Assembly (NCBI GenBank): GCA_049642015.1
Contig: JBAROI010000054.1
Location: 553 to 64,552 of the forward strand
Direction of reading: 5' to 3'
From: Candidatus Omnitrophota bacterium
GTDB taxonomy: Bacteria > Omnitrophota > Gorgyraeia > Tantalellales > Tantalellaceae
Length of the DNA stretch: 64,000 nt
Position 1 is the stretch's first letter, and each line of letters begins with the position of its first letter. The translations under genes were made by a program, and so were the position numbers. The notes beneath the pieces are model-generated. The model did not search any database and was not told the origin of the DNA. It saw only the letters and a list, made by a program, of their open reading frames with translations. Shown in pieces: positions 8,055 to 61,504 of this stretch.

Positions 8055-9287
8055 ATGGATAACGAACGGCGGAAAAAGCCCGAACTGGTAGCACCCGCAG
8101 GAGACTGGAGCTCGCTTTACAGCGCTTCCGAGGCCGGCGCTGATGCCGTGTATTTCGGCGTCAAGGGCCTTAACATGCGCGCGAGCGCGAGAAATTTTGA
8201 TATTCTTGAAATAAGAAAAGTAATGGATTTTCTTCGCGGGGAAGGCAGGAAGGGATACCTGGCTTTGAACGTCCTTGTCTATGACCGCGAGATGGACCTG
8301 GCAAGAAAGATCCTGGACGCGGCCCGGGAGGCGGGAGTTGACGCCGTCATCGTCTGGGACATGGCGGCGCTTTCGATCGCGAAGGAACTCGGACTTTGCG
8401 CGCACCTTTCGACCCAGGCGAGTGTCGCCAACCTGCCGGCGCTGAAGGCGTATTCCTCCCTGGGTGTTGACCGGGTCGTATTGGCAAGAGAGTGCGCCTT
8501 AAAAGACATAGAAAATATGATACAGGGCCTCTCCCGGGAAAAAATAAAATGCAGGATCGAGACGTTCATCCACGGGGCGATGTGCGTAAGCGTTTCCGGC
8601 AGATGCTTTCTTTCCCATCATTCTTTTTTCAGGTCGGCGAACAGGGGCGATTGTATCCAGCCATGCAGGAGGGAATTCACCATTATTGATAAGGACAAGG
8701 AGTGCGGTTACGTGCTGGGGGAGGATTACGTATTAAGCGCGAAAGACCTGTGCACCGTAGGATTCATAGACAAACTGATAGAGGCCGGCATTCACGCCTT
8801 CAAGATCGAAGGAAGAATGCGTCCGCCGGAATACGTAAGTGTCGTTACTTCTGTCTACAGGGACGCTATAGATTCGTTTTTTGAAGGCGGTTTTGATGAT
8901 GATAAGAAAGAGGAGCTTTTAAAAAGGCTCGGCCGGTCCTTTAACAGGGGCTTTACGAGCGGGTTCTATTTCGGCAGGCCCGATGATACCGGAGGAAGAG
9001 TAAGCAGGGAGTACGAAAAAGTCTACCTGGGAGAGGTCGTTAAGTTCTATAAAAAAGTAGGCGTTGCCGAGATAATGGTAAGGGGCGAGGCTTTGAACAC
9101 GGGCCAGGAGATATTAGTTACAGGTAAAAAAACGCCTGCCAGCTTTGCCAGGGTGACGGAAATGCAGATAGAACACGAGGCGGTTGAATCGGCCGAAAAG
9201 GGACAGGCTGTAGGGGTTAAACTTCCGTTTGCGGTCCGTCGGGACGATAAAGTTTTTCTCTGGAAGTCAAGTGAGGCCCAAACTTAG
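8055..9287 (+). CDS. peptidase U32 family protein (collagenase-like; RlhA/UbiU-type)
   Basis: ELVAPAGDW...AGADAVYFG N-terminal U32 signature, Cys-rich core, C-terminal beta-barrel domain; start moved from 8010 to in-frame ATG 8055 to avoid overlap with upstream gene. Confidence 0.8.
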   Translation: MDNERRKKPELVAPAGDWSSLYSASEAGADAVYFGVKGLNMRASARNFDILEIRKVMDFLRGEGRKGYLALNVLVYDREMDLARKILDAAREAGVDAVIVWDMAALSIAKELGLCAHLSTQASVANLPALKAYSSLGVDRVVLARECALKDIENMIQGLSREKIKCRIETFIHGAMCVSVSGRCFLSHHSFFRSANRGDCIQPCRREFTIIDKDKECGYVLGEDYVLSAKDLCTVGFIDKLIEAGIHAFKIEGRMRPPEYVSVVTSVYRDAIDSFFEGGFDDDKKEELLKRLGRSFNRGFTSGFYFGRPDDTGGRVSREYEKVYLGEVVKFYKKVGVAEIMVRGEALNTGQEILVTGKKTPASFARVTEMQIEHEAVESAEKGQAVGVKLPFAVRRDDKVFLWKSSEAQT

Positions 9288-9500
9288 CAAAGCTAAGTTT
9301 GGTGGCCGAACTTGACCCAGCCTTCTAAGCTGTTAATGGGCAGTAGTGATTTAAGAGAAAAGTTAACTGAAATACAAAAGGATTTTTGAAACTTACCAGC
9401 ATAGAAGGCTGGGTTTAATTCGCAGACGGCCTAAAAGGCCTACAATTTATGTCGTCCATAGAGGACTCCATAAATTGTCTGCTCATTAAAAAAGGAGGTA
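9268..9500 (+). repeat. family-1 structured intergenic leader element, copy A
   Basis: caagtgaggccc + ccaaacttagc/gctaagtttgg hairpin + gccgaacttgacc + cccag...ctggg stem (75-nt insertion in loop) + tttaattcgcagacggcctaaaaggcc + acaatttatg/cataaattgt hairpin + ctcattaaaaaaggagg SD. Confidence 0.7.
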
Positions 9501-11165: not shown

Positions 11166-12608
11166 ATGAAGTTATTGAAAGTTTTTTGCGTTCTGGTGCT
11201 TGTGTTCGCGGTATCCGCGATCGCACATGCCGAAACGCAGAGCGTAAAAGTGAGCGGTGATATCACCCAGCGCGCTTTTGCGAGAGGTGATTATGACCTG
11301 GATGAAGGGGATCCGGAAGCCGCAAACGGCACCGAATCCAACGACTGGTCAACTTACCTGTTGAGCACGGTCGAAGTTCAGGTTGATGCTGACCTTACCG
11401 ACAACGTATCCGGTGTTATCAGACTCATCAACCAGAGGGTATGGGGCGATGGTCTGTACCAGAGCAACCCCGCCGGCGGCGAACTGAGAGAGATCAGCCA
11501 GAACGGCGCAGTTGGTGTCAAGGCTGTTGCTCCCGGTTCAGCAGACGCGTTTGAGGTTGGGGTCGACCTGGCCTATATCGAACTGAAAGAGTTCCTATAC
11601 TCTCCTCTTACACTGAGGATAGGTCGTCAGGACCTTTGGTTCGGTAAGGGCTTCATCATTGGCGCGAACCTGAACGATATCGCGGGAAGCATTTTCCCGA
11701 CAGAGTACACTGCGGTCTCTTCATTTGACGCAGTCCGTGCGACGTTGGACTATGATCCCTGGACCATTGACGCTGTTTACGCGAAGATAAGCGAAAACGC
11801 CAGAAGGTCCGATGACGATATCAACCTCTGGGGCGTAAACGTCGGCTACGTTTTCGACGCTTACAACGCAGAAGCTGAAGCTTATTGGTGGTTCAAGGAT
11901 GCCAGGAACCCGGGTGCGGGTGTTGGTAACTCCCTGAACAGCATCGATGGCAAATGCTCCAATGACGTTCACGTTATGGGTGGTCGCGGCAGCTTCGATC
12001 CGATCGAAGACTGGACGATCGCTGTAGAAGGTGCTTATCAGCTCGGCCGTTACATGGTGGCTTCTCAGGTGGATAGAAGAGAAAGAAGCGCCTGGGCGCT
12101 CGACGCGATGATCGAATGCCGCTACTGGCAGGATGATTTCGCGTGGAGACCCGTAATGGGCGTAGAATACGTCTTCTACTCCGGCAACGAGAACATGGGC
12201 AATCAGTTAGCTACGACCAGCGGCGACTGGAAGGGCTGGGACCCGATGTACAGAGGCAAGTTTGACACTGCCATCAGAGAGTTCCAGAACTCGTTTTATG
12301 CCACCGCGATGGCCAGCAGCCCGTCCTACACGAACCAGCATCAGCTGCTCGTTACTGGTGTTGTTGAGCCGACAGACAGCCTTACTTTCAAAGCGAAGTA
12401 CGGCCACTTCTGGCTCGCTGAGGACTGGTCAAGCACCAACACTGACAAGAATGTCGGTGACGAAGTCGATCTACTCCTGACATGGGATTACACCGAGGAC
12501 GTTCAGTTCAGTCTTCTGACTGCATGGTTCTTCCCGGGCGATCACTTCGACGGTGGACAGGATTCAGCAGCTACCGACATAGTCGGTTCTGTAAAGCTCA
12601 GCTTCTAA
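11166..12608 (+). CDS. outer-membrane beta-barrel protein (putative porin)
   Basis: Cleavable signal peptide (AIAHA/ET), alternating amphipathic strands, C-terminal ...SVKLSF (terminal Phe), strong SD AAGGAGG, followed by intrinsic terminator. Confidence 0.55.
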   Translation: MKLLKVFCVLVLVFAVSAIAHAETQSVKVSGDITQRAFARGDYDLDEGDPEAANGTESNDWSTYLLSTVEVQVDADLTDNVSGVIRLINQRVWGDGLYQSNPAGGELREISQNGAVGVKAVAPGSADAFEVGVDLAYIELKEFLYSPLTLRIGRQDLWFGKGFIIGANLNDIAGSIFPTEYTAVSSFDAVRATLDYDPWTIDAVYAKISENARRSDDDINLWGVNVGYVFDAYNAEAEAYWWFKDARNPGAGVGNSLNSIDGKCSNDVHVMGGRGSFDPIEDWTIAVEGAYQLGRYMVASQVDRRERSAWALDAMIECRYWQDDFAWRPVMGVEYVFYSGNENMGNQLATTSGDWKGWDPMYRGKFDTAIREFQNSFYATAMASSPSYTNQHQLLVTGVVEPTDSLTFKAKYGHFWLAEDWSSTNTDKNVGDEVDLLLTWDYTEDVQFSLLTAWFFPGDHFDGGQDSAATDIVGSVKLSF

Positions 12609-12630
12609 GTTAAATACATCTAGCTTAACA

Positions 12631-12668
12631 AAGCCCCGGCTCGCAAAACGAGCCGGGGCTTTTTTTAT
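12631..12668 (+). terminator. rho-independent terminator
   Basis: gccccggctcg-caaaa-cgagccggggc stem-loop followed by T7 run. Confidence 0.8.
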
Positions 12669-12840
12669 ACCTGTCTAGAAGTATGTCATCCCGGGCGACT
12701 TCTGCGAAGCCCTTACTAGTTGACAGGCAAGCTGAAGGGCGAAGCAGAGGAGACCCGGGATCACATAAAAGTTTTATTTGATCCCGGATATTCGCCTTCG
12801 GCGAATTCCGGGATGACATATATTCACTTCGGTGAACCGG
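12669..12840 (+). repeat. structured inverted-repeat region (13-bp perfect IR tatgtcatcccgg/ccgggatgacata with inner UUCG-type hairpins)
   Basis: IR arms at 12682-12694 and 12808-12820; inner hairpins cggatattcgcc-ttcg-gcgaattccg and tcac-ttcg-gtga. Confidence 0.5.
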
Positions 12841-12925
12841 GATTTTTCTATGCGCTATACGCTAGTTATATATTGACTTTTGGGATTTAAACATTAGAAT
12901 ATATAATCAAAACAACATATCACAC

Positions 12926-13936
12926 GTGAAATTTTCAAAAAACTTTATTATAACAATTTCTATTATTATCTTCGTAGCGCTGGCGCTGGCGGGTTTTATG
13001 ATATGGAAGGCGAAAAGGCCGCCGCTGAAAGTCGGGCGCGAAGTAATCCGAGATTTCTCGTTTCCCGATGCTAAAAGCTTGAATGAATGGGAAGATAAGC
13101 TTTTGGCCCGCAGCCGCACTGATTACAGCGTGGCCGAAGAGGCGGGCAAGAGCTGCGTCAAGGCCCAAAGCGAAGATTCGGCATCAGCCCTTTTTTACCA
13201 GCGCAACCTTTTTTTCTTAAAGAGGCCCTTTGTAAGCTGGGACTGGAAGGTGGCGAAATTCCCGGAACGGCAGCAGCAAGAGAACCTTGATAAGAAAGAA
13301 GAGTTTGATTTCGGCGCTCAATTTTACGTTATATTCGCATCCAGGTTCTTTCTTAATACAAAGGCCATCCAGTATGTCTGGACCGAAAAGATGCCGGCGG
13401 GGACGGTCAGTAATAGCCCGTATACAAAAAATGTTAAGATCATGGTCCTTGAATCCGGGCCTTCTGAAGAGTGGAAACACGAAGAGCGGAACATAGAAGA
13501 GGATTTTAGAAATCTTTTTGGCAAGGAACTCAATAAGAACGTGGCCGCGGTAGCGCTTATGTCGGATTCTGACAGCACCGGGACCAGCGCTTTAGCTTAT
13601 TTCAGCAATATTGTACTCGGCTATCTTGGAGTGGATTTGAGCAGGCGAAAGCGCTATGTAAAGAAAAAGCTTGTGCGGTCAAAGCGCTTCCCGTTTAGAA
13701 AGATAGAAGTTGAAGTAGCAGAAGAAGTGGAACCGGCAAAGAAAGTAGAGCCGGTAAAAGAAGTGGTGCCGGCAGAGGAAGTAGAGCCGGTAAAGGAAGT
13801 GGAGCCGGTAGAAGAAATAGCACCCGCAGAAGAAGCAGAACCGATAAAGGAAGAAAAGCCAATAGAAGAAGCAGAACCAGCAAAGGAATTGGAGCCAACA
13901 AAGGAATTGGAGCCAACAAAGGAGGAAAGCCATTAA
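12926..13936 (+). CDS. DUF3047-like protein (paralog 2) with C-terminal E/P/K-rich tandem repeat tail
   Basis: N-terminal TM; core similar to ORF 674..1408; C-terminal (EPxKEx) repeats. Confidence 0.45.
   Translation: MKFSKNFIITISIIIFVALALAGFMIWKAKRPPLKVGREVIRDFSFPDAKSLNEWEDKLLARSRTDYSVAEEAGKSCVKAQSEDSASALFYQRNLFFLKRPFVSWDWKVAKFPERQQQENLDKKEEFDFGAQFYVIFASRFFLNTKAIQYVWTEKMPAGTVSNSPYTKNVKIMVLESGPSEEWKHEERNIEEDFRNLFGKELNKNVAAVALMSDSDSTGTSALAYFSNIVLGYLGVDLSRRKRYVKKKLVRSKRFPFRKIEVEVAEEVEPAKKVEPVKEVVPAEEVEPVKEVEPVEEIAPAEEAEPIKEEKPIEEAEPAKELEPTKELEPTKEESH
13705..13930 (+). repeat. tandem coding repeats (~24-30 nt units, gaagtRgagccggtaaaggaa-like)
   Basis: Direct repeats visible in DNA; encode VEPVKEVEPVEE... 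tail. Confidence 0.6.
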
Positions 13937-14349: not shown

Positions 14350-15141
14350 ATGGGGATACACCAGACAGCTATCGTGGCAAAAAATACCGAGATCGATGAT
14401 TCCGTGGAGATCGGGCCTAATGTCATAATAGAAGAAAAAGTAAGGATCGATCCTGGCGTTAGGATAATGGCCAACGCGTATATCCACAAAAATACGGAAA
14501 TAGGCGAAGGCACCGTCATCCACCCCGGGGCCGTCATAGGGGGCGAGCCGCAGGATTATTCGTACAAGGGCGGGGAGACTTTCACCAGGATCGGGAAGAA
14601 TAACATCATACGGGAATATGTCACCATTCACCGCGGCACCGAGGAGGGTTCGGCGACCGTGGTCGGTGACAATAATTTCCTGATGGTCCAATCCCACCTC
14701 GGCCATAATTGCAGAATAGAAAATGAAGTGACCATCGCCAACGGGGCGCTTTTGGCGGGACACGTTGAGGTTGAAAAGGGCGCCTTTATATCCGGCAATG
14801 TTGTCTTTCACCAGTTCTGCCGGGTGGGTCGCTACGCGATGATAGGGGGATTCACCGGGGTGAACAAGGATGTCCCGCCGTACATGCTGGTCAGGGGGCC
14901 TTCCGTTATAAGGGGTATCAACCTCGTGGGGCTCCGGCGCGCGGGGTTCAGCAGAGAAGTGATAAAAGAAATAAAAGAGGCGTATAGACTGCTGTTTACC
15001 GCGGGAAGAACGACCCGTGAGGCGGCCGAGAAGATCAGGGAGAACTTGAAGTCCGGCGAGATAGAGCATCTTGTCTCGTTTGTCGAAGCTTCTAAAAGGG
15101 GTATATGCAAGCTTAGGTATAGCAAGGAAGAATATTTTTAA
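14350..15141 (+). CDS. lpxA: acyl-ACP--UDP-N-acetylglucosamine O-acyltransferase
   Basis: Left-handed hexapeptide repeats; IHQTAIVAKNTEIDDSVEIGPN...IGKNNIIREYVTIHRGT aligns with E. coli LpxA N-terminus; start set at MGIHQ (14350) rather than track 14311. Confidence 0.85.
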   Translation: MGIHQTAIVAKNTEIDDSVEIGPNVIIEEKVRIDPGVRIMANAYIHKNTEIGEGTVIHPGAVIGGEPQDYSYKGGETFTRIGKNNIIREYVTIHRGTEEGSATVVGDNNFLMVQSHLGHNCRIENEVTIANGALLAGHVEVEKGAFISGNVVFHQFCRVGRYAMIGGFTGVNKDVPPYMLVRGPSVIRGINLVGLRRAGFSREVIKEIKEAYRLLFTAGRTTREAAEKIRENLKSGEIEHLVSFVEASKRGICKLRYSKEEYF

Positions 15142-15143
15142 AT

Positions 15144-15306
15144 CAAGTGAGGGCCAAACTTAGCTTCGCTAAGTTTGGTGGCCGAACTTGACCCCACACC
15201 CAGAATTACCTGGGTGTGGGGTTTAATTCGCAGACGGCCTAACGGCCTACAATTTATGTCGTCCATAATGGACTCCATAAATTGTCTACTCATTAAAAAA
15301 AGGAGG
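15144..15306 (+). repeat. family-1 structured intergenic leader element, copy B
   Basis: Same modules as copy A; begins 3 nt after lpxA stop. Confidence 0.7.
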
Positions 15307-15312
15307 AGAGGA

Positions 15313-15666
15313 ATGGAAAAAAATGATTTAAACAAGCTGATTAAAAAATACGAGCCTGTCATGAAGAAGACCGGCGAGCAGCTCACGAAGGCAATGAAAA
15401 GCGCCGAGAAAGATGTTTCCAAAATGTATAAAATAGCCCAGACCCACGTAGAGATACAGATGAAGAATCTGCAGAAGGAAAAACTCTACTATGAATTGGG
15501 CAAATACGTTGCGGGAAAACTCAAAAAAGGGGAGATCGAGATCGCCGGCCTTGAAAAGTACAAAAAATCCCTAAGCAAGATCGAGTCCGAAGGGAAAATG
15601 ATGAAAAGCAAATTATCCCGGATCGGAACAGGCAAGGGTAAGGAAAAATCTTCTAAGAAAAAATAA
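15313..15666 (+). CDS. hypothetical Lys-rich coiled-coil protein
   Basis: ORF with strong AGGAGG SD, preceded by family-1 leader element; start at MEKNDL within longer track ORF. Confidence 0.4.
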   Translation: MEKNDLNKLIKKYEPVMKKTGEQLTKAMKSAEKDVSKMYKIAQTHVEIQMKNLQKEKLYYELGKYVAGKLKKGEIEIAGLEKYKKSLSKIESEGKMMKSKLSRIGTGKGKEKSSKKK

Positions 15667-29788: not shown

Positions 29789-31084
<1,296 letters not shown>

Positions 31085-31236
31085 GTCAGGTGAGGCTATT
31101 ACTTATGGTGCAGAGCGCCATAAGTAATAAAGCCGAACTTGACCCCACACCCAGAATTACCTGGGTGCGGGGTTTAATTCGACCGAATAGTTTACGTGCA
31201 CGTTGTGCACGTAAACTATGGTCTCATTAAAGGAGG
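31085..31236 (+). repeat. family-1 structured intergenic leader element, copy C (module-1 hairpin replaced; module 3 of ttacgtgcac/gtgcacgtaa type)
   Basis: gtgaggc + attacttatggtg/cgccataagtaat hairpin (one G·U) + gccgaacttgacc + cccacacccag/ctgggtgcggg + tttaattcgaccgaata + hairpin + ctcattaaaggagg SD. Confidence 0.65.
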
Positions 31237-41293: not shown

Positions 41294-41393
41294 ATAACCG
41301 GTGAAGGGTACTCCGCGCGCAGTTTCCGAAAAATAGTAATCTTAGGTCATTGTTTTCGGACTGTTTGAGCACGGAGTACCCTTCACCGGTTAT
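41294..41393 (+). repeat. family-2 long hairpin element (copy 1)
   Basis: 22-bp perfect outer stem ataaccggtgaagggtactccg/cggagtacccttcaccggttat around conserved core cgcgcagtttccgaaaaat...ttttcggaNtgtttgagcacgg; begins 11 nt after arfB stop. Confidence 0.6.
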
Positions 41394-57374: not shown

Positions 57375-57463
57375 TTGTGTGCGGTATTCCGCGCGCAGTT
57401 TCCGAAAAATCGTATTCTAGTTTAGCGTTTTTCGGATGTTTGAGCACGGAATACCGCACACAA
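57375..57463 (+). repeat. family-2 long hairpin element (copy 2)
   Basis: Outer stem ttgtgtgcggtattccg/cggaataccgcacacaa (different sequence, same pairing) around the same conserved core as 41294..41393; begins 2 nt after murB stop. Confidence 0.6.
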
Positions 57464-57486: not shown

Positions 57487-58416
57487 ATGAAAGAGTTAGA
57501 TGCGCTTAGAAAATACGAGATAGGAGTTTTGGCTGGCGGAAGTTCGAGCGAGCGGGAAATAAGCCTGAAGAGCGGAAGAGCCGTTTTCGATGCTTTGCGC
57601 GAGGCAGGCCTTGACGCGGCGCTCATCGACGTCAAAGAGGACGACTTTGCTTTACTGGTGAACGAGGCCGGCATAGACCTGGCCTTTATCGCCCTGCATG
57701 GCAGGTTCGGCGAGGACGGGACGGTCCAGAAGATGCTGTTCGAAAGAGGCGTTCTTTACACTGGCTCAGGGCCGGAAGCCTCCCGTATGGCGCTCGACAA
57801 GATCGCGTCAAAAGAGCGGTTAAGCGGGAAAGACCTGAAGACTCCCGAGTACATGGTTACGGAGCTCGGAGAAAGCATACCGTACGAAAGCGTCTGGTTC
57901 CCCTGTGTCGTCAAGCCCCAGCATGAAGGGTCGAGCATAGGCCTTACGGTCGTTTCCTCGAAGGAGCACCTGGCAGAGGCGGTGGACAGGGCTTCTAATT
58001 ACAGCAGGCGCATCATCATCGAAAAATTTATTGAGGGCAGAGAGATAACAGTCGGCATACTGGAGAACAGGGCGCTGCCCGTGGTAGAGATCGTCCCCGA
58101 AGGAGGGTGCTACGATTTTAACGCCAAGTATCAATCGGCAAATACCAGGTACATCGTTCCGGCTGATATCGACGAAGACGTTTTTAAACGCGCCCAGGAA
58201 ACGGCGGTAAACGCCCACAACGCCCTTGGCTGCGAGGAATTCTCCAGGGTGGATATGCGGCTTTCGTCCGAGGGAGAATTATTTATTCTGGAGGTCAACA
58301 CCATCCCGGGACTCACCGAGAGGAGTTTGCTTCCGATGGCAGCAAAGGCGGTGGGCTTGAGTTTTACCGAGCTATGCGTTAAGATACTTGTGGGAGCGAT
58401 CAGGAAAGTCAAGTGA
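57487..58416 (+). CDS. ddl: D-alanine--D-alanine ligase
   Basis: ATP-grasp; GVLAGGSSSEREISL N-terminus; start at MKELDAL (57487) within track ORF 57436. Confidence 0.85.
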   Translation: MKELDALRKYEIGVLAGGSSSEREISLKSGRAVFDALREAGLDAALIDVKEDDFALLVNEAGIDLAFIALHGRFGEDGTVQKMLFERGVLYTGSGPEASRMALDKIASKERLSGKDLKTPEYMVTELGESIPYESVWFPCVVKPQHEGSSIGLTVVSSKEHLAEAVDRASNYSRRIIIEKFIEGREITVGILENRALPVVEIVPEGGCYDFNAKYQSANTRYIVPADIDEDVFKRAQETAVNAHNALGCEEFSRVDMRLSSEGELFILEVNTIPGLTERSLLPMAAKAVGLSFTELCVKILVGAIRKVK

Positions 58417-58565
58417 GGGCCAAACTTAGCGAAGCTAAGTTTGCTGGCCGAACTTGACCCCACACCCAGCATATTATGAACATAGCATGCTGGGTGTGGG
58501 GTTTAATTCGACCGAATACCTTACGTGCACAGTGTGCACGTAAGGTATGGTCTCATTAAAGGAGG
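58410..58565 (+). repeat. family-1 structured intergenic leader element, copy D
   Basis: caagtgagggcc + module-1 hairpin + gccgaacttgacc + cccacacccag...ctgggtgtggg + ttacgtgcac/gtgcacgtaa hairpin with outer stem acct/aggt (agtt/aact in copy C) + ctcattaaaggagg SD; ddl stop TGA lies inside the element. Confidence 0.7.
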
Positions 58566-58573
58566 ATAAATAA

Positions 58574-59350
58574 GTGGCGAGAAGAAAAAAAGGACAGGAT
58601 TTTGGAAATCTTTTCAAGAATCTCTTTAGCAGCAAACTTGTTTTGATAGGTCTTTTGTGCATTGTTGTAACAGGAGGTTTTTTTTACGGCATCTGGTATT
58701 TTCTGCATAATGACCCGTTTTTCACTATAAACAGCGTATCGGTGAACGAGGAAGGGGATTATTCCCTGTGGAAAGGGAAGGATAGGCTCGGCAGGCTTTA
58801 TGCGGGAAGGAACATATTTAGCGTAAATCCCGCGGAGATAGAGATAATGATAAGAGATGAAGCCCCGCAGCTGGATACTGTAACCGTGCGGCGGATCATG
58901 CCGGACAGGCTTGAAATAGACGTTGTTCCCCGCAGACCCGTGGCATTTATAGACGCGGGGGAACCTGTTATTATCGACGCTGAGGCGATCGTCTTGAGCC
59001 GGGAAGGCAGCACAGGGGATCTGGTCCAGATAAAAGGGATCAGGTTCTTTTTTTCAAGCCCTTCGGTGGGCGAGCGTATCGACAACGCGATGCTGTCCAA
59101 AGCCCTGGCGCTTCTGGATGCCTTGCGCGAGAAAGGCATCTCCGGAAAAATCCCCGTTAAATTTATTGATATCTCCGACCGGAACGATATCCAGTTCAGC
59201 ATTCTTGACGTCAGGATAAAGATGGGAAACAGCGGTTTTCCCGGAAAAATAATCAAACTCAAAGAGATACTGGATGACCCCGATGTTGACATCAAAGACA
59301 TAAAATACATCGATCTGAGGTTCGAGAAGGCGGTCATATCTCCGAAGTGA
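58574..59350 (+). CDS. ftsQ: cell-division protein FtsQ (POTRA)
   Basis: GTG start 8 nt after GGAGG; single TM then POTRA-like domain; dcw position. Confidence 0.7.
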   Translation: MARRKKGQDFGNLFKNLFSSKLVLIGLLCIVVTGGFFYGIWYFLHNDPFFTINSVSVNEEGDYSLWKGKDRLGRLYAGRNIFSVNPAEIEIMIRDEAPQLDTVTVRRIMPDRLEIDVVPRRPVAFIDAGEPVIIDAEAIVLSREGSTGDLVQIKGIRFFFSSPSVGERIDNAMLSKALALLDALREKGISGKIPVKFIDISDRNDIQFSILDVRIKMGNSGFPGKIIKLKEILDDPDVDIKDIKYIDLRFEKAVISPK

Positions 59351-59489
59351 AGTAAGGACACAACTTACGGAGTGAAACGACGTAAGTTGTAAGTCCGAAC
59401 TTCATCCTGAGCGAACGAACAAAGTGAGTGAGTCGAAGGATCTCAAGAAAGATTCCTCGACTCCCCTGGGTCTTCGCCCGGGGTCGCTC

Positions 59490-59520
59490 GCCCCGTTAGA
59501 AACGGAATTTCTAACGGGGC
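59490..59520 (+). repeat. family-3 hairpin (gccccgttagaaa / tttctaacggggc), copy 2
   Basis: 13-bp stem, 5-nt loop, in ftsQ-ftsA spacer; shares ccgttagaaa arm with copy 1. Confidence 0.6.
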
Positions 59521-59566
59521 TCGGAATGACATCAGGAAGACTAATGAAGTCGAAGGATCTAAAAAG

Positions 59567-60619
59567 ATGAACAGGTATTTTGCGATCTTAAATACGGGAT
59601 CTGACGAGATCACGGCAGTTGCAGCCCGCTGGACGGGGAGCGGCGACTATTTACTGGAAGGTTTCTGCAGGGGCGCCTCGAGGGGCCTTCGGAAGGGAGT
59701 CGTCGACGATATTACCGCCGCGGCAAGCGCTGTGCACGGCGTATTGAACGACCTGAAGGAGAGATCGGGCAAAAAATTTTCAGATGTGTACGCAAGTATA
59801 AGCTCTTCCTCCGTCAGGATCGCTTCGTCCCGGGGGATGGTGGTGCTTTCGAAATACGGACGCGAGATCAACGAGAACGACATAAAGAAATGCGTCCAGG
59901 CCGGGTCCACGGTAAAGATGCCGCTCGATAAAGAGGCCCTGCATTACATAGTTAGCGGGTTTTCCGTTGACGGAGAAAAATCCGTAAAAAATCCTTTGAA
60001 TCTGGAAGGCGTCAAACTTAACGCCAACATGAACATTATCACGATAAACTCTTCGGCGTTAAACAATCTTGCTAAATGTATTACCATGGCCGGCTTTTCT
60101 CCCGCGGGGTTTGTTTTTTCCGGACTTGCCACGTCTTACAGGGTCCTGGACGAAGAGGAAAAAGAAGAAGGGACCGTTTTGCTGGACATAGGAGACGATA
60201 CCGTTGAAGCCCTGGCCTTTTACAGGGGCATATTAAGAGGGTGCAGGGTTTTTCCCATAGGATTGAACGAGATCCTCCTGAAAGGCGAGAATGTCGATAA
60301 AAGCAGCATAGATGATCTTGTTTCACAGATCGTTTCCCTGCCCGGCTGGGATACGACCCGCAAGGTAGTGGTGACAGGCAATGGGGCAATGGTCGACAGG
60401 CTGGTCGAGGTTCTGGAAAAGTCCTTCAAGCGCCCTACCGAGATCGGGACTTTTCTTGTAAAGCCGTTCGAGGAACTCCCTCCCGAAAGAATGAGGTATC
60501 TCGGGAACATCGGCATACTGGATTACCTCCGGGAAAAGAAACTGGCAGAACGTCACTCCGGAAATCCGACAAAAAGGGTTTTCAACAAGATCCTCGCTTT
60601 CATCGACCGCTATTTCTAG
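59567..60619 (+). CDS. ftsA: cell-division protein FtsA (actin-like ATPase), short form
   Basis: Alignable to E. coli FtsA blocks (LDIGDDTVEALAFYRG..., VVVTGNGAM...). Confidence 0.7.
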   Translation: MNRYFAILNTGSDEITAVAARWTGSGDYLLEGFCRGASRGLRKGVVDDITAAASAVHGVLNDLKERSGKKFSDVYASISSSSVRIASSRGMVVLSKYGREINENDIKKCVQAGSTVKMPLDKEALHYIVSGFSVDGEKSVKNPLNLEGVKLNANMNIITINSSALNNLAKCITMAGFSPAGFVFSGLATSYRVLDEEEKEEGTVLLDIGDDTVEALAFYRGILRGCRVFPIGLNEILLKGENVDKSSIDDLVSQIVSLPGWDTTRKVVVTGNGAMVDRLVEVLEKSFKRPTEIGTFLVKPFEELPPERMRYLGNIGILDYLREKKLAERHSGNPTKRVFNKILAFIDRYF

Positions 60620-60703
60620 CTTTATATTCCGCAATTGACAATACCCCTAAATTATGATAATTTTAACCATTAACTTCGTGGCTAAAATAATGGGGTATAT
60701 ATT

Positions 60704-61504
60704 ATGAATAATTTTAAAATAGGGATTATAGGCTGTGGCAATATGGGCGGGGCCATCGTCCGCGGCATGGTCAATAAAGGCATCGTCGAAGGCAAGAATA
60801 TATATTTAGAAGACAAAGATATAAATAAATCGGCGTCTCTTGCCAAAGAGACCGGGGCCCTGGATGAGGACCTTTGTTTTTTGATGAGTAAATCGGACAT
60901 TGTCATCATAGCCGTAAAGCCCCAGGACTTTGATCACCTGTCGGAGGGCATAGTCTCCGAGGTTGCCGGACAGACCTTTATTTCCGTAATGGCGGGAATA
61001 AATATAGATACGATCGTTAAAAAGCTCGGCAGGGAAGTGCCGGTCGCCAGAGCCATGCCTAATATGGGCGCGTTCGTGGCCGAAGGCGTGACATGTCTTT
61101 CGTATAACTCTCTTGTAAACAAGAAGGAAGAGGTAAGATCTGTTTTTTCGGGCATAGGTGAAGTGTTTGAGGTGGAAGAAGGCGCCATGAACGCTGTGAC
61201 GGCCGTCTCCGGAAGCGGACCCGCATACCTTTTTTATCTGGCGGATGCCATGATCTCAGCCGCCGAAAAGTCAGGGCTGGACAAAGATACAGCCGCGAAA
61301 CTTGTTGAGCAGACCTTGCTGGGAAGCACGATGCTGCTCAAAAAGTCGGGAGAGTCGCCCGGCGAGCTTATCTCTAAAGTTGCCTCAAGGGGAGGGACCA
61401 CGGAAGCCGCGTTATCTGTTTTTGACGCGGAAAACCTGAAATCCATCATCGAAAACGCTATCCAGAAGGCGAAAGAACGCTCCGAGGAACTTTCGAAAGG
61501 ATAA
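60704..61504 (+). CDS. proC: pyrroline-5-carboxylate reductase
   Basis: IGIIGCGNMGGAIVRG Rossmann motif; GSGPAYLF; C-terminal P5CR dimerisation domain. Confidence 0.8.
   Translation: MNNFKIGIIGCGNMGGAIVRGMVNKGIVEGKNIYLEDKDINKSASLAKETGALDEDLCFLMSKSDIVIIAVKPQDFDHLSEGIVSEVAGQTFISVMAGINIDTIVKKLGREVPVARAMPNMGAFVAEGVTCLSYNSLVNKKEEVRSVFSGIGEVFEVEEGAMNAVTAVSGSGPAYLFYLADAMISAAEKSGLDKDTAAKLVEQTLLGSTMLLKKSGESPGELISKVASRGGTTEAALSVFDAENLKSIIENAIQKAKERSEELSKG

Follow-up and report, generated by a model that had tools for sequence, protein, structure and literature searches.

What is the element that recurs between unrelated genes in an Omnitrophota genome, and does selection act on it as RNA or as DNA? 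In the window analyzed here, a stretch of 64,000 nucleotides from a metagenome-assembled genome (MAG) of Candidatus Omnitrophota, an earlier note had described four copies of a structured repeat. It offered two readings: a genome-wide structured-RNA leader, or a MITE-like cassette acting as terminator and re-initiation ribosome-binding site. We conclude, with a probability of roughly two in three, that the repeats are a composite, non-autonomous MITE-like mobile DNA element of Candidatus Omnitrophota made of two kinds of palindromic module. Full-text searches and paper look-ups returned no description of this element in the literature.

The basic repeat is an imperfect hairpin of about 60 nt, which we call a unit. 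Each unit consists of a 6-bp A/T basal helix (TTTAAT/ATTAAA or TCAAAT/ATTTGA), a TC/TC internal loop, a 4-bp helix, a bulge of 1-3 nt, a 10-bp helix and a pyrimidine-rich loop; 144 of 150 units have the TC/TC loop. Module 1 of the element had been taken for a motif of its own. When a covariance model, R1, was built from module 3 alone, it matched module 1 on the minus strand in 4/4 copies (E = 4e-8 to 2e-6), which identifies module 1 as the reverse-complement homologue of module 3. A full element, 136-421 nt in length, is therefore an inverted unit (module 1, the E unit), a central CCC...GGG hairpin (module 2, hairpin 2) and a forward unit (module 3, the S unit), and this arrangement gives it the two-fold symmetry of a transposon with terminal inverted repeats. 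In both flavours of unit, E and S, the polarity of the loop tracks the orientation of the unit. An apparent small ORF in the E unit (ATG/GTG in TCAAATGAAG...) was discarded, as neither its length nor its frame is conserved.

All four copies were confirmed on the sequence, with one shared orientation and one modular build. The motif GCCGAACTTGACC occurs exactly 4 times in the window, and with up to 2 mismatches allowed it has 7 matches where chance predicts 1.5; GGTTTAATTCG also occurs 4 times, and a de novo repeat search of the window recovered the repeat families as well. In copy A, the E unit (9267..9317, minus strand; R1 46.9 bits, E = 3.8e-8) contains the TAG stop of the U32 peptidase gene (9285-9287), as the earlier note had said. 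Hairpin 2 of this copy (9316..9413) had been described as a CCCACACCCAG stem with an insertion, but arm search and folding assign it to a different arm type, CCCAGCCTTCT / AGAAGGCTGGG, around a 76-nt loop of the ~83-nt class. Its S unit (9412..9490, plus strand) is a three-way variant with an extra GGCC mini-hairpin, detected by pattern and, as an insertion variant, by R1 at 19.9 bits; this variant is common in metagenomes. GGAGG (9494-9498) and an ATG (9504) follow. Copy B begins with an E unit at 15143..15193 (minus strand; R1 39.1 bits, E = 2.3e-6), 1 nt after the LpxA stop TAA (15139-15141), whose first base is 4 nt upstream of the first base of the unit. Hairpin 2 (15192..15221) has arms CCCCACACCCA / TGGGTGTGGGG and an 8-nt loop, and the S unit (15220..15297, plus strand), again a three-way variant, precedes GGAGG at 15302-15306 and ATG at 15313.

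Copy C follows the TAA stop (31082-31084) of a Cys/Met PLP enzyme gene. Its E unit (31086..31144, minus strand; R1 42.8 bits, E = 3.2e-7) carries a variant stem, which had been read as an unrelated hairpin of the same length; it is in fact homologous to the other units, a variant of 59 rather than 51 nt. Hairpin 2 (31143..31172) is of the copy B arm type with one A·C mismatch, and the S unit (31171..31231, plus strand; R1 70 bits, E = 2.3e-13) is followed by GGAGG (31232-31236) and the cysK ATG (31243). The E unit of copy D (58409..58459, minus strand; R1 41.6 bits, E = 6.2e-7) holds the ddl stop TGA (58414-58416), which the earlier note had also placed inside the repeat and which is the TGA conserved at unit position +5. 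Hairpin 2 (58458..58501; arms CCCCACACCCA / TGGGTGTGGGG, 22-nt loop) leads to the S unit (58500..58560, plus strand; R1 69.4 bits, E = 3e-13), GGAGG at 58561-58565 and the ftsQ GTG at 58574. The count of four holds for full copies and misses a solitary fifth unit of E type at 59348..59406 (minus strand; R1 49.2 bits, E = 1.1e-8), the first three plus-strand bases of which are the ftsQ stop TGA; with this half-copy the window contains 4.5 copies. The neighboring genes U32, LpxA, Cys/Met PLP enzyme, cysK, ddl and FtsQ were verified, LpxA and the Cys/Met PLP enzyme by Pfam.

Identical copies are present in independent assemblies (NCBI MAG, Logan and ENA; loci L041 and L044), so the element is not an artefact of assembly. 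Assemblies do break or have N-gaps at element copies, and apparent indels relative to the ZINK19 scaffold proved to be 100-nt scaffold gaps at repeats, so we dropped our reading of them as polymorphism. A search of genome contigs with the pattern GTGAGGN{25,45}GCCGAACTTGACCC gave 39 single chance matches only, all in unrelated phyla. Using the covariance model, we recovered 237 units in 721 kb from 120 metagenome loci; because these loci were chosen by unit pattern, the set gives a biased view of how dense the copies are and of how many of them bear genes. Among 82 neighboring unit pairs, 75 are proximal-facing (69 E+S, 4 S-S and 2 E-E), 6 are distal-facing and 1 lies on the same strand. One S-S pair (L049) sits visibly between divergent genes.

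The edges of the units fit gene boundaries closely. Of the S units, 82 border a gene start and 9 a gene end; of the E units, 12 border a start and 57 an end (odds ratio 43, p = 1e-21). The start codon comes after the unit at a distance of 0-1 nt or 9-16 nt, and stop codons are at 0, +1 or +5. The edge facing the gene end (TCAAATGA / TTAAATGA / TGAAATGA) supplies stop codons that end the upstream ORF, and the edge facing the gene start (CTCATTAAA) ends immediately before the Shine-Dalgarno sequence or start codon of the host. Units are even found between cistrons of the spc ribosomal-protein operon, where the 5′ half of the basal helix contains the stop codon and the ATG comes directly after the 3′ half. 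The tight fit of the edges to stops and starts, together with the presence of units in a ribosomal-protein operon, could reflect use of the hairpins by the host. The Shine-Dalgarno sequence itself, which had been counted as part of the element, is adjacent host sequence: it is present in an empty allele and missing at 15 of the 82 start-adjacent units.

Evidence for mobility comes from sites compared between relatives. At three orthologous junctions the element is present in one contig and absent from the other, the empty alleles reading 'TAA taatccaaat ATG', 'AAG TAA a ATG' and, in the third, a sequence where the Shine-Dalgarno is already in place. Six syntenic dcw clusters of other Omnitrophota, with MurC 49-73% identical, contain no unit, even in unfiltered searches. 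In one orthologous element (L085/L134) with flanks ~80% identical, all three hairpins differ by fully compensated changes and the hairpin-2 loop measures 83 nt in one copy and 26 nt in the other; these hairpin differences suggest turnover or conversion. No consistent direct repeat was seen at the 69 outer boundaries inspected for a target-site duplication, and a TA or TAA(A) duplication may be hidden by the divergence between filled and empty sites. A phage-borne origin was discarded: two viral-contig matches lacked a hairpin and scored 25-29 bits from the fixed flanks, and as both are due to chance, the element is not phage-borne.

The origin of the central module is suggested by its longer forms. 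Inside 18 of the 95 resolvable central hairpins (~19%, a share biased by the choice of loci) lies an intact ORF of 76-95 aa that matches Pfam GIY-YIG (PF01541; E = 1e-11 to 1e-17). For the nested nucleases, the nearest structures are 1zg2 and 1ywl, both UPF0213, and SLX1. The catalytic core of these nucleases (Tyr, Tyr-x-Gly, Arg, His, Arg-Glu) is invariant, and they consist of the catalytic domain only, with no DNA-binding domain; with TIGR01453 they reach 20 bits, where the cut-off is 56. To our knowledge, no transposase or homing activity has been described for a GIY-YIG domain of 76-95 aa. The genes are enclosed by inverted arms of 11-18 bp (the 85-aa ORF of L087, for instance, has its own arms, CCCCTCACCTT...), and in 14 element-borne genes the arm type tracks the nuclease subfamily without exception; three unit-less loci have the arm type expected for their subfamily. 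Homologues picked from the protein side in Planctomycetota, CPR and other Omnitrophota have no units and keep the same inverted arms. In L176, unit-less nuclease cassettes occur in tandem with derivatives that have a loop of ~85 nt, and both share a 5′ leader. On sequence comparison, the central hairpin is thus a putative deletion derivative of an inverted-arm cassette around a stand-alone UPF0213/SLX1-like GIY-YIG gene. The nuclease cassette is independent of the units, and its gene accounts for the central module rather than for them. A search for a gene-bearing form of the 60-nt unit turned up a single candidate, which proved to be two separate copies of one unit; no GIY-YIG gene lies within the 64-kb window, and no classical transposase is associated with the element.

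Together, these results support the MITE-like option. The element is short, non-coding and multi-copy, with high copy number and insertion polymorphism in the form of filled and empty sites; its units occur overwhelmingly as inverted pairs (75 versus 7 in other arrangements), and its gene-bearing relatives carry the GIY-YIG gene. Terminal inverted repeats, regarded in the earlier note as the mark of a plain MITE, are present. The functions attached to the cassette are not supported in the form given, since there is no terminator-like T-tract or sigma-70 promoter, the Shine-Dalgarno is host-derived and the initiation region is not more open than its flanks (accessibility 0.54 vs 0.52). Terminator and promoter scans picked up a marginal terminator-like match and a promoter-like one (9/12) in copy A only, and copies B and D gave neither; the real terminator of the genome, at 12630-12662, differs from the element in appearance. 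We rejected a promoter made of TTGACA in some hairpin-2 arms with TTTAAT as the -10, because the spacing suits the shortest loops only and the scans were empty in copies B-D. Hairpin 2 was likewise rejected as a terminator, as it has no proper T-tract and its loops can contain an entire gene.

The alternative that survives best, though we consider it unlikely, is a structured RNA useful to the host: an intercistronic hairpin that protects or processes polycistronic transcripts, or holds stop and start codons near each other and thereby maintains translational coupling between adjacent genes, and that spread by beneficial duplication. The element is always co-oriented with gene boundaries, comes in two boundary-specific flavours and fills the whole spacer. 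Its predicted folding is very strong (-88 kcal/mol, z = -10.9 vs shuffles), and in the spc operon the position of the stop in the basal helix with the ATG right after it juxtaposes stop and start in the folded RNA. The Shine-Dalgarno sequences of copies C and D are unpaired in the minimum-energy fold; the accessibility values given above argue against the idea that they are kept open by design, and against this alternative in general. The compensatory changes cited earlier in favor of RNA are real, but they fail to discriminate RNA from DNA palindromes. What does discriminate is the kind of pair that is tolerated. The stems are 96-97% Watson-Crick, and the S units have 1618 Watson-Crick pairs with 24 G·U and 20 A·C, the E units 1196 with 18 G·U and 9 A·C. 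On neither strand is there an excess of G·U, and the small bias in the E units is in the wrong direction for RNA. The antisense strand folds equally well (-88.0 on the plus strand vs -88.6 on the minus strand). In addition, the unpaired nucleotides and loop polarity track the unit, with the result that the E and S halves of an element yield complementary, not identical, RNA motifs, which speaks against a structured-RNA leader. The pairing constraint is strand-symmetric, a symmetry at the DNA level. Near-perfect pairing in combination with wide sequence divergence needs either selection on the hairpin or a copying process that regenerates palindromes. The element is also missing from orthologous operons of relatives that have the same gene order, namely the six dcw clusters, and the junctions are polymorphic among related contigs. 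Nothing in the 64 kb reached an Rfam gathering score, sub-threshold matches being generic miRNA-type hairpins only. Ribozyme, group I intron and tRNA-like readings, raised by the nuclease ORF in the loop, were dropped given the absence of an Rfam match and the strand-symmetric constraints.

Strand symmetry would equally suit a chromosomal element of the REP/BIME kind with a DNA-level role for the host, such as sites for gyrase, a nucleoid protein or a domesticated nuclease, or punctuation for replication or recombination, kept by selection and not by ongoing mobility. REPs are 20-40 nt long, have a conserved 5′ GTAG and are served by a cognate RAYT (TnpA_REP) gene. Like the BIMEs of Enterobacteria, our element is a mosaic of imperfect palindromic units in alternating orientation, present in hundreds of copies, with conserved imperfections in its hairpins, and it occupies transcribed spacers after stop codons and between operon genes. 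The invariant, non-complementary TC/TC loop further suggests recognition of an extruded hairpin by a protein. However, units of ~60 nt with four structural segments greatly exceed REPs in complexity, a GTAG motif is absent, and neither a RAYT nor another dedicated gene is among the annotated genes of the window. The edges are specialized for gene ends versus gene starts, unlike those of BIMEs, and the central module derives from a self-contained nuclease cassette nested inside. Positions are not kept between related genomes, and the 83- versus 26-nt loop in the single orthologous element compared (L085/L134) also speaks against a kept chromosomal site. We therefore consider this explanation quite improbable. 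That the units are attC-like sites, folded as single-stranded DNA and delimiting exchangeable gene cassettes, is very improbable: an imperfect hairpin with basal helix, unpaired central spacer, bulge and variable top, stop codons that overlap the site and mutually inverted units that bracket genes all recall attC, but the R″/R′ core sequences (RYYYAAC / GTTRRRY) are absent, no integrase is in the window, the bracketed DNA consists of conserved housekeeping operons in fixed order, and presence or absence concerns the spacer element rather than the genes.

Other known systems resemble the MITE-like element in part. Along with attC, the ends of IS200/IS605 elements and PATEs share conserved structure with variable sequence, and bulges or mismatches that give polarity; unlike them, the element has no Y1 HUH transposase or integrase and has other conserved motifs, and the wobble test on its units shows no strand bias. 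The Correia elements of Neisseria (NEMIS/CREE) and the MITEs ERIC, RUP and BOX are also short, abundant and non-coding, have terminal inverted repeats, insert near genes, are co-transcribed and vary in presence between strains; the modular build recalls BOX (A-B-C). Here, in contrast, a TA duplication is not demonstrable, an outward promoter is absent, each terminal repeat is itself a hairpin, and full-length relatives bear a stand-alone GIY-YIG gene in place of a DDE transposase. Another parallel is offered by free-standing GIY-YIG homing endonuclease genes (phage T4 seg and I-TevI relatives): there too, a nuclease gene with intact catalytic residues sits between conserved genes in their direction, is distributed sporadically and spreads horizontally. 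The nested protein differs from them as a UPF0213/SLX1-type catalytic domain with no I-TevI/Seg-type DNA-binding fusion, its gene lies within inverted arms and leaves non-coding derivatives with short loops, and the element is chromosomal, not phage-borne. At a conceptual level, IStrons, group I introns and inteins are also nuclease-associated selfish elements in essential loci with expression intact. Our element has no splicing or ribozyme core, and its neutrality would instead come from stop and start signals at its edges and from folding away.

In the reading that we favor, two units form an inverted pair in the manner of terminal inverted repeats, and the element lands in, or persists nowhere but in, the handful of nucleotides that separate a stop codon from the following Shine-Dalgarno or start codon. 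Its edges are fitted to this niche, with the entrance edge terminating the upstream ORF, and the entire insert can fold away as three hairpins, which may render insertion almost neutral for operon expression. As for movement, we infer that the nuclease might mobilize the central module by acting on hairpin or cruciform DNA, through either break-induced copying or excision, and the units may be mobilized by that nuclease or by another enzyme. More tentatively, and as a possibility to which we give less than even odds, this may be a new class of prokaryotic mobile DNA, in which a minimal, structure-specific GIY-YIG nuclease of the SLX1/UPF0213 type mobilizes inverted-arm cassettes in hairpin or cruciform form. 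The cassettes of Omnitrophota would then have gained ~60-nt adapters that restore stop and start context and fold out of the mRNA, allowing residence in translationally coupled essential operons. If true, the element would function as an intron analogue as far as operon expression is concerned, and the widespread bacterial UPF0213 (YhbQ/YazA) family, of unknown function, would gain a role.

The analysis carries a caution: massive "covariation" in a repeat family alone is no proof of functional RNA, and comparison of G·U with A·C between strands tells a functional RNA from a DNA palindrome. For annotation, starts directly 3′ of units, for example those of SecY and S14, and stops within units are real. 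The element also explains why Omnitrophota MAG assemblies are fragmented at intergenic sites. Read as mobile DNA, it shows a selfish element colonizing very compact genomes while leaving operons unbroken, by way of stop-start gaps and its own stop-codon edge. It further ties the stand-alone UPF0213/SLX1-like GIY-YIG proteins of Omnitrophota, Planctomycetota and CPR to inverted-repeat cassettes, and thereby provides a testable hypothesis for their function.

The window comes from a Candidatus Omnitrophota MAG, and the repeat occurs at the four positions where the earlier note placed it, 9268-9500 (copy A), 15144-15306 (copy B), 31085-31236 (copy C) and 58410-58565 (copy D), with all copies on the + strand and one order of motifs common to them; its families were also recovered by a repeat search of the window. 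The motif GCCGAACTTGACC is found exactly four times in the window (seven matches when up to two mismatches were allowed, versus 1.5 expected by chance), and the invariant junction GGTTTAATTCG also four times, at 9412-9422, 15220-15230, 31171-31181 and 58500-58510. A universally conserved part of 16S rRNA (E. coli ~956-966) has the identical sequence, which is probably a coincidence. The fold of copy D consists of three hairpins (-88 kcal/mol, z = -10.9). The gene identities were confirmed, with a U32 peptidase 5′ of copy A and LpxA 5′ of copy B; copy C is flanked by a Cys/Met PLP enzyme and cysK, and copy D by ddl and ftsQ.

Scanning JGI metagenomes with the pattern GGTTTAATTCGN{35,65}CTCATTAAA gave at least 120 stretches, and nearly all of the matches listed were genuine, in that both motifs flank a hairpin of free sequence with its pairing kept. 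From an alignment of 47 copies of homogeneous length we defined an imperfect hairpin of ~60 nt, the unit, consisting of a basal helix (TTTAAT/ATTAAA), a 2x2 TC/TC internal loop, a 4-bp helix, a 5′ bulge of 1-3 nt, a 10-bp helix and a loop of about 12-15 nt. In this alignment 98.2% of cells are paired, versus 25-43% with the partner slid, and both-sided changes occur at ten pairs, values that were reached by 0 of 500 shuffles. The compensatory changes described earlier are real, although they do not tell an RNA from a DNA palindrome. R1, the covariance model built from the 47 copies, matched module 3, the last part of the element, in 4/4 window copies on the + strand, and module 1, the first part, in 4/4 copies on the minus strand (E = 4e-8 to 2e-6). 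Because R1 matches both on opposite strands, modules 1 and 3 are inverted copies of one unit; the modular build described in the earlier note is retained, but module 1 is not a separate motif. The element has two-fold symmetry, reversed unit, hairpin 2 (module 2), forward unit. R1 also matched a fifth, solitary unit at 59348-59406 (minus strand), the first bases of which are the ftsQ stop codon. Among the matches listed, R1 identified 237 units in 120 metagenome loci, with neighboring units forming 75 proximal-facing pairs versus 6 distal-facing and 1 same-strand. Covariation extends to all 20 pairs, basal helix included, in a larger alignment that is model-derived and hence fitted to R1.

The distal edge of a unit exists in two flavors, which adjoin different gene boundaries. 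Among the matches listed, CTCATTAAA edges adjoin 82 gene starts versus 9 ends, and YTCAYTTRA edges, which on the gene strand read TCAAATGA, TCAAGTGA or TTAAATGA, adjoin 57 gene ends versus 12 starts (odds ratio 43, p = 1e-21). We call these flavors S (start-adjacent) and E (end-adjacent) units; the 75 listed pairs comprise 69 E+S, 4 S-S and 2 E-E. For the same matches, the start codon follows the unit by 0-1 nt in 12 cases and by 9-16 nt in 64, with a Shine-Dalgarno (SD)-like motif between unit and start codon in 67/82. Stop codons fall at offsets 0, +1 or +5 within the unit edge, or else at most 15 nt before it. At locus L049 an S-S element sits between divergent genes, and its outer left flank carries an SD and ATG. 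In the spc ribosomal-protein operon of another Omnitrophota (L074), a lone 53-nt unit makes up the whole L5-S14 spacer. Its basal helix contains the L5 stop TAA in its 5′ strand, and the 3′ strand is followed at once by the S14 ATG; SecY, too, begins right after a unit in the NCBI annotation. The element is thus tolerated in an operon that is highly expressed and translationally coupled. We infer that the edges serve as adapters, such that the upstream ORF would end at the entrance, the downstream start would be left in place, and the insert between the two edges would fold away. The terminator and re-initiation RBS suggested earlier were not supported, as no canonical promoter or terminator was found inside the window copies and the initiation region was no more open than generic flanks.

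We favor a DNA-level element that matters through its hairpin or cruciform form, invariant mismatch included; there may instead be only a generic need for hairpins in the transcript. Folding is equally good for the two strands, and stem pairing is 96-97% Watson-Crick. Among the matches listed, G·U pairs are as scarce as A·C mismatches, with counts of 24 vs 20 in S units and 18 vs 9 in E units. In the latter the sense strand of the mRNA is complementary to the unit, and the small G·U bias hence points the wrong way; hairpin-2 arms, tallied by hand, gave 10 vs 5, which is not significant. The TC/TC internal loop is present in 144/150 listed units of both flavors, and in either flavor the apical loop is rich in pyrimidines when read in unit orientation. 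Since these conserved imperfections follow unit polarity and not transcription, the two halves of an element give complementary mRNA sequences. The nearest neighbor of a unit has the same flavor in 113/147 listed cases, and S and E units are largely separate lineages. Each flavor has therefore kept a fixed orientation to transcription, yet neither has a wobble bias. A search of Rfam gave no match at gathering score, and this together with the strand-symmetric constraints argues against a sequence-specific RNA function, including the structured-RNA leader of the earlier note. The copies are not an artifact of assembly, because the same sequence is found in independent assemblies (NCBI MAG GCA_049645965.1, Logan contigs and an ENA scaffold), several of which terminate or have 100-N gaps precisely at the copies, as expected of a multi-copy repeat.

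The CCC...GGG arms of hairpin 2 fall into a handful of sequence types. Among the matches listed, its loop sizes cluster at ~3, ~25, ~83 and 225-290 nt (one is 386 nt), and 18/95 resolvable hairpins contain an ORF of 76-95 aa that starts directly after the 5′ arm and stops directly before the 3′ arm. All 5/5 ORF subtypes have a GIY-YIG catalytic domain, with catalytic residues invariant across nuclease subfamilies and phyla. Among solved structures, the nearest are those of BH0048 and EF2693, both UPF0213 proteins, then SLX1, and the family is grouped in the literature with Slx1, YhbQ and YazA (PMC7017083). Profile comparison rejected an I-TevI-like identity. Arm type tracks nuclease subfamily in 14/14 listed element-borne genes, and three loci without units have the arm type expected for their subfamily. 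In the reverse approach, from the protein, homologues were picked solely by similarity and length of the contig; an R1 search with filters off found no units in the contexts taken, from a Sedimentisphaerales MAG, a CPR MAG and two metagenome contigs. Inverted arms flank the nuclease gene in the inspected loci, L172, L173, L176 and L179; the arms are CCCGCACCTTCT...AGAAGGTGCGGG or, for the CPR genome, CCCGCCTAAGTTTTTGCG...CGCAAAAATTTAGGCGGG. Given that unit-less homologue loci keep these arms, hairpin 2 is an independent module across phyla. L176 has a tandem array of one gene-bearing hairpin amid two ~85-nt-loop hairpins, both sharing its 5′ leader. Short-loop forms, all four in the window included, are best read as deletion derivatives.

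At L139:13347-13607 the nested GIY-YIG gene is opposite to the downstream gene, every other one being co-oriented; the cassette is thus apparently able to sit either way in hairpin 2. Unit-less cassettes at L176:5840-6400 and L173:5995-6325 have TGAA direct repeats on both sides, possibly a target duplication of 4 bp. Their site is the start codon (...ATGAA[TCCCGCACC...GGTGCGGGA]TGAA...), the arm's last base plus TGAA re-creating the ATG or GTG of the downstream gene, and their 3′ arm, AGAAGGTG, is SD-like in appearance.

The dcw gene order is kept in six other Omnitrophota (MurC 49-73% identical); R1 found no units in these clusters, where large gaps lie at other junctions and involve other repeats. 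An all-against-all comparison of loci yielded syntenic pairs that differ in length at junctions with a unit, from which we read three empty and filled orthologous pairs: 'GAT TAA taatccaaat ATG' vs 'GAT TGA GTGAGG...246 nt...CTCATTT aat ATG', '...tattat aacagaGAGAGGTGGaaaag ATG' vs '...tattag [258-nt element] GGAGGTGGtagct ATG', and 'AAG TAA a ATG' vs 'AGT TAG TGAGG...193 nt...CTCATTAAA ATG'. The second pair has the SD without the element, so the SD is host sequence older than the element and not, as had been claimed, supplied by it. These junctions, the inverted ends and the high copy number support the earlier suggestion of a MITE-like cassette. In contigs L085 and L134 an element occupies the same junction between genes ~80% identical, with many fully compensated changes in all three hairpins and a central loop of 83 vs 26 nt, which looks like replacement or conversion between copies and not slow compensatory evolution. 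A search of viral contigs did not find the element. The 16-nt S8-L6 spacer of L074 (reverse complement 1656-1671), 'TAA gtgaggacataagtct ATG', matches an E unit over its first ~14 nt, and is either a deletion footprint of an element or a hint that the E-unit edge (GAGG) arose from native spacers with an SD.

A second, unrelated repeat family of ~74 nt with inverted ends (GGTACTCC...GGAGTACC) occurs in the window at 41307-41380, where another assembly's scaffold, ZINK19, has an N-gap, and at 57383-57455; one of these copies falls between murB and ddl. In the ftsQ-ftsA spacer 3′ of the solitary unit (59407-59566), GTCGAAGGATCT occurs as a direct repeat (59432-59443 and 59549-59560) and CCCCGTTAGAAA...TTTCTAACGGGG is a hairpin (59491-59519); similar 'TTTCTAACGGG' hairpins are found in L143 and in the S5-L15 spacer of L074. 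Other Omnitrophota have unrelated, differing intergenic repeat families at other dcw junctions (L166:11378-11685 and 12601-12926, L167:3895-4055, L168:3711-3900), so spacer colonization by repeats seems general in the phylum. In 7/7 Omnitrophota dcw clusters the genes after ftsA are proC/yggT, not ftsZ (window 59567-61504; L166-L171), and a promoter-like sequence, TTGACA(T)...N...TATGMTAATTTTAACCATTAA, is conserved upstream of proC in four (L166:15715-15842, L167:15084-15291, L169:15125-15521, L171:15215-15704). At the C-terminal end of a DUF3047 protein gene in the window is an 18-nt periodic coding repeat (13716-13912) rich in Glu, Pro, Val and Lys.

We consider a composite mobile palindromic element to be the best explanation, with a probability of roughly 0.68. 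Closest in behavior are bacterial MITEs and BIMEs (REP mosaics, Correia, BOX), which are likewise short, abundant, modular, transcribed intergenic DNA with inverted ends and polymorphic between genomes. Unlike these, each terminal repeat of the element is an elaborate imperfect hairpin, its two ends are specialized for gene end and gene start, it has no evident target duplication or DDE/HUH transposase, and its central module comes from a cassette with a stand-alone UPF0213/SLX1-like GIY-YIG nuclease. Free-standing GIY-YIG homing endonuclease genes are similarly wedged into conserved operons; however, the element's nuclease has no DNA-binding domain and is enclosed by inverted arms. We found no description of the element in Rfam or the searchable literature, and its interest lies in the link to a nuclease and in its precise adaptation to operon junctions.
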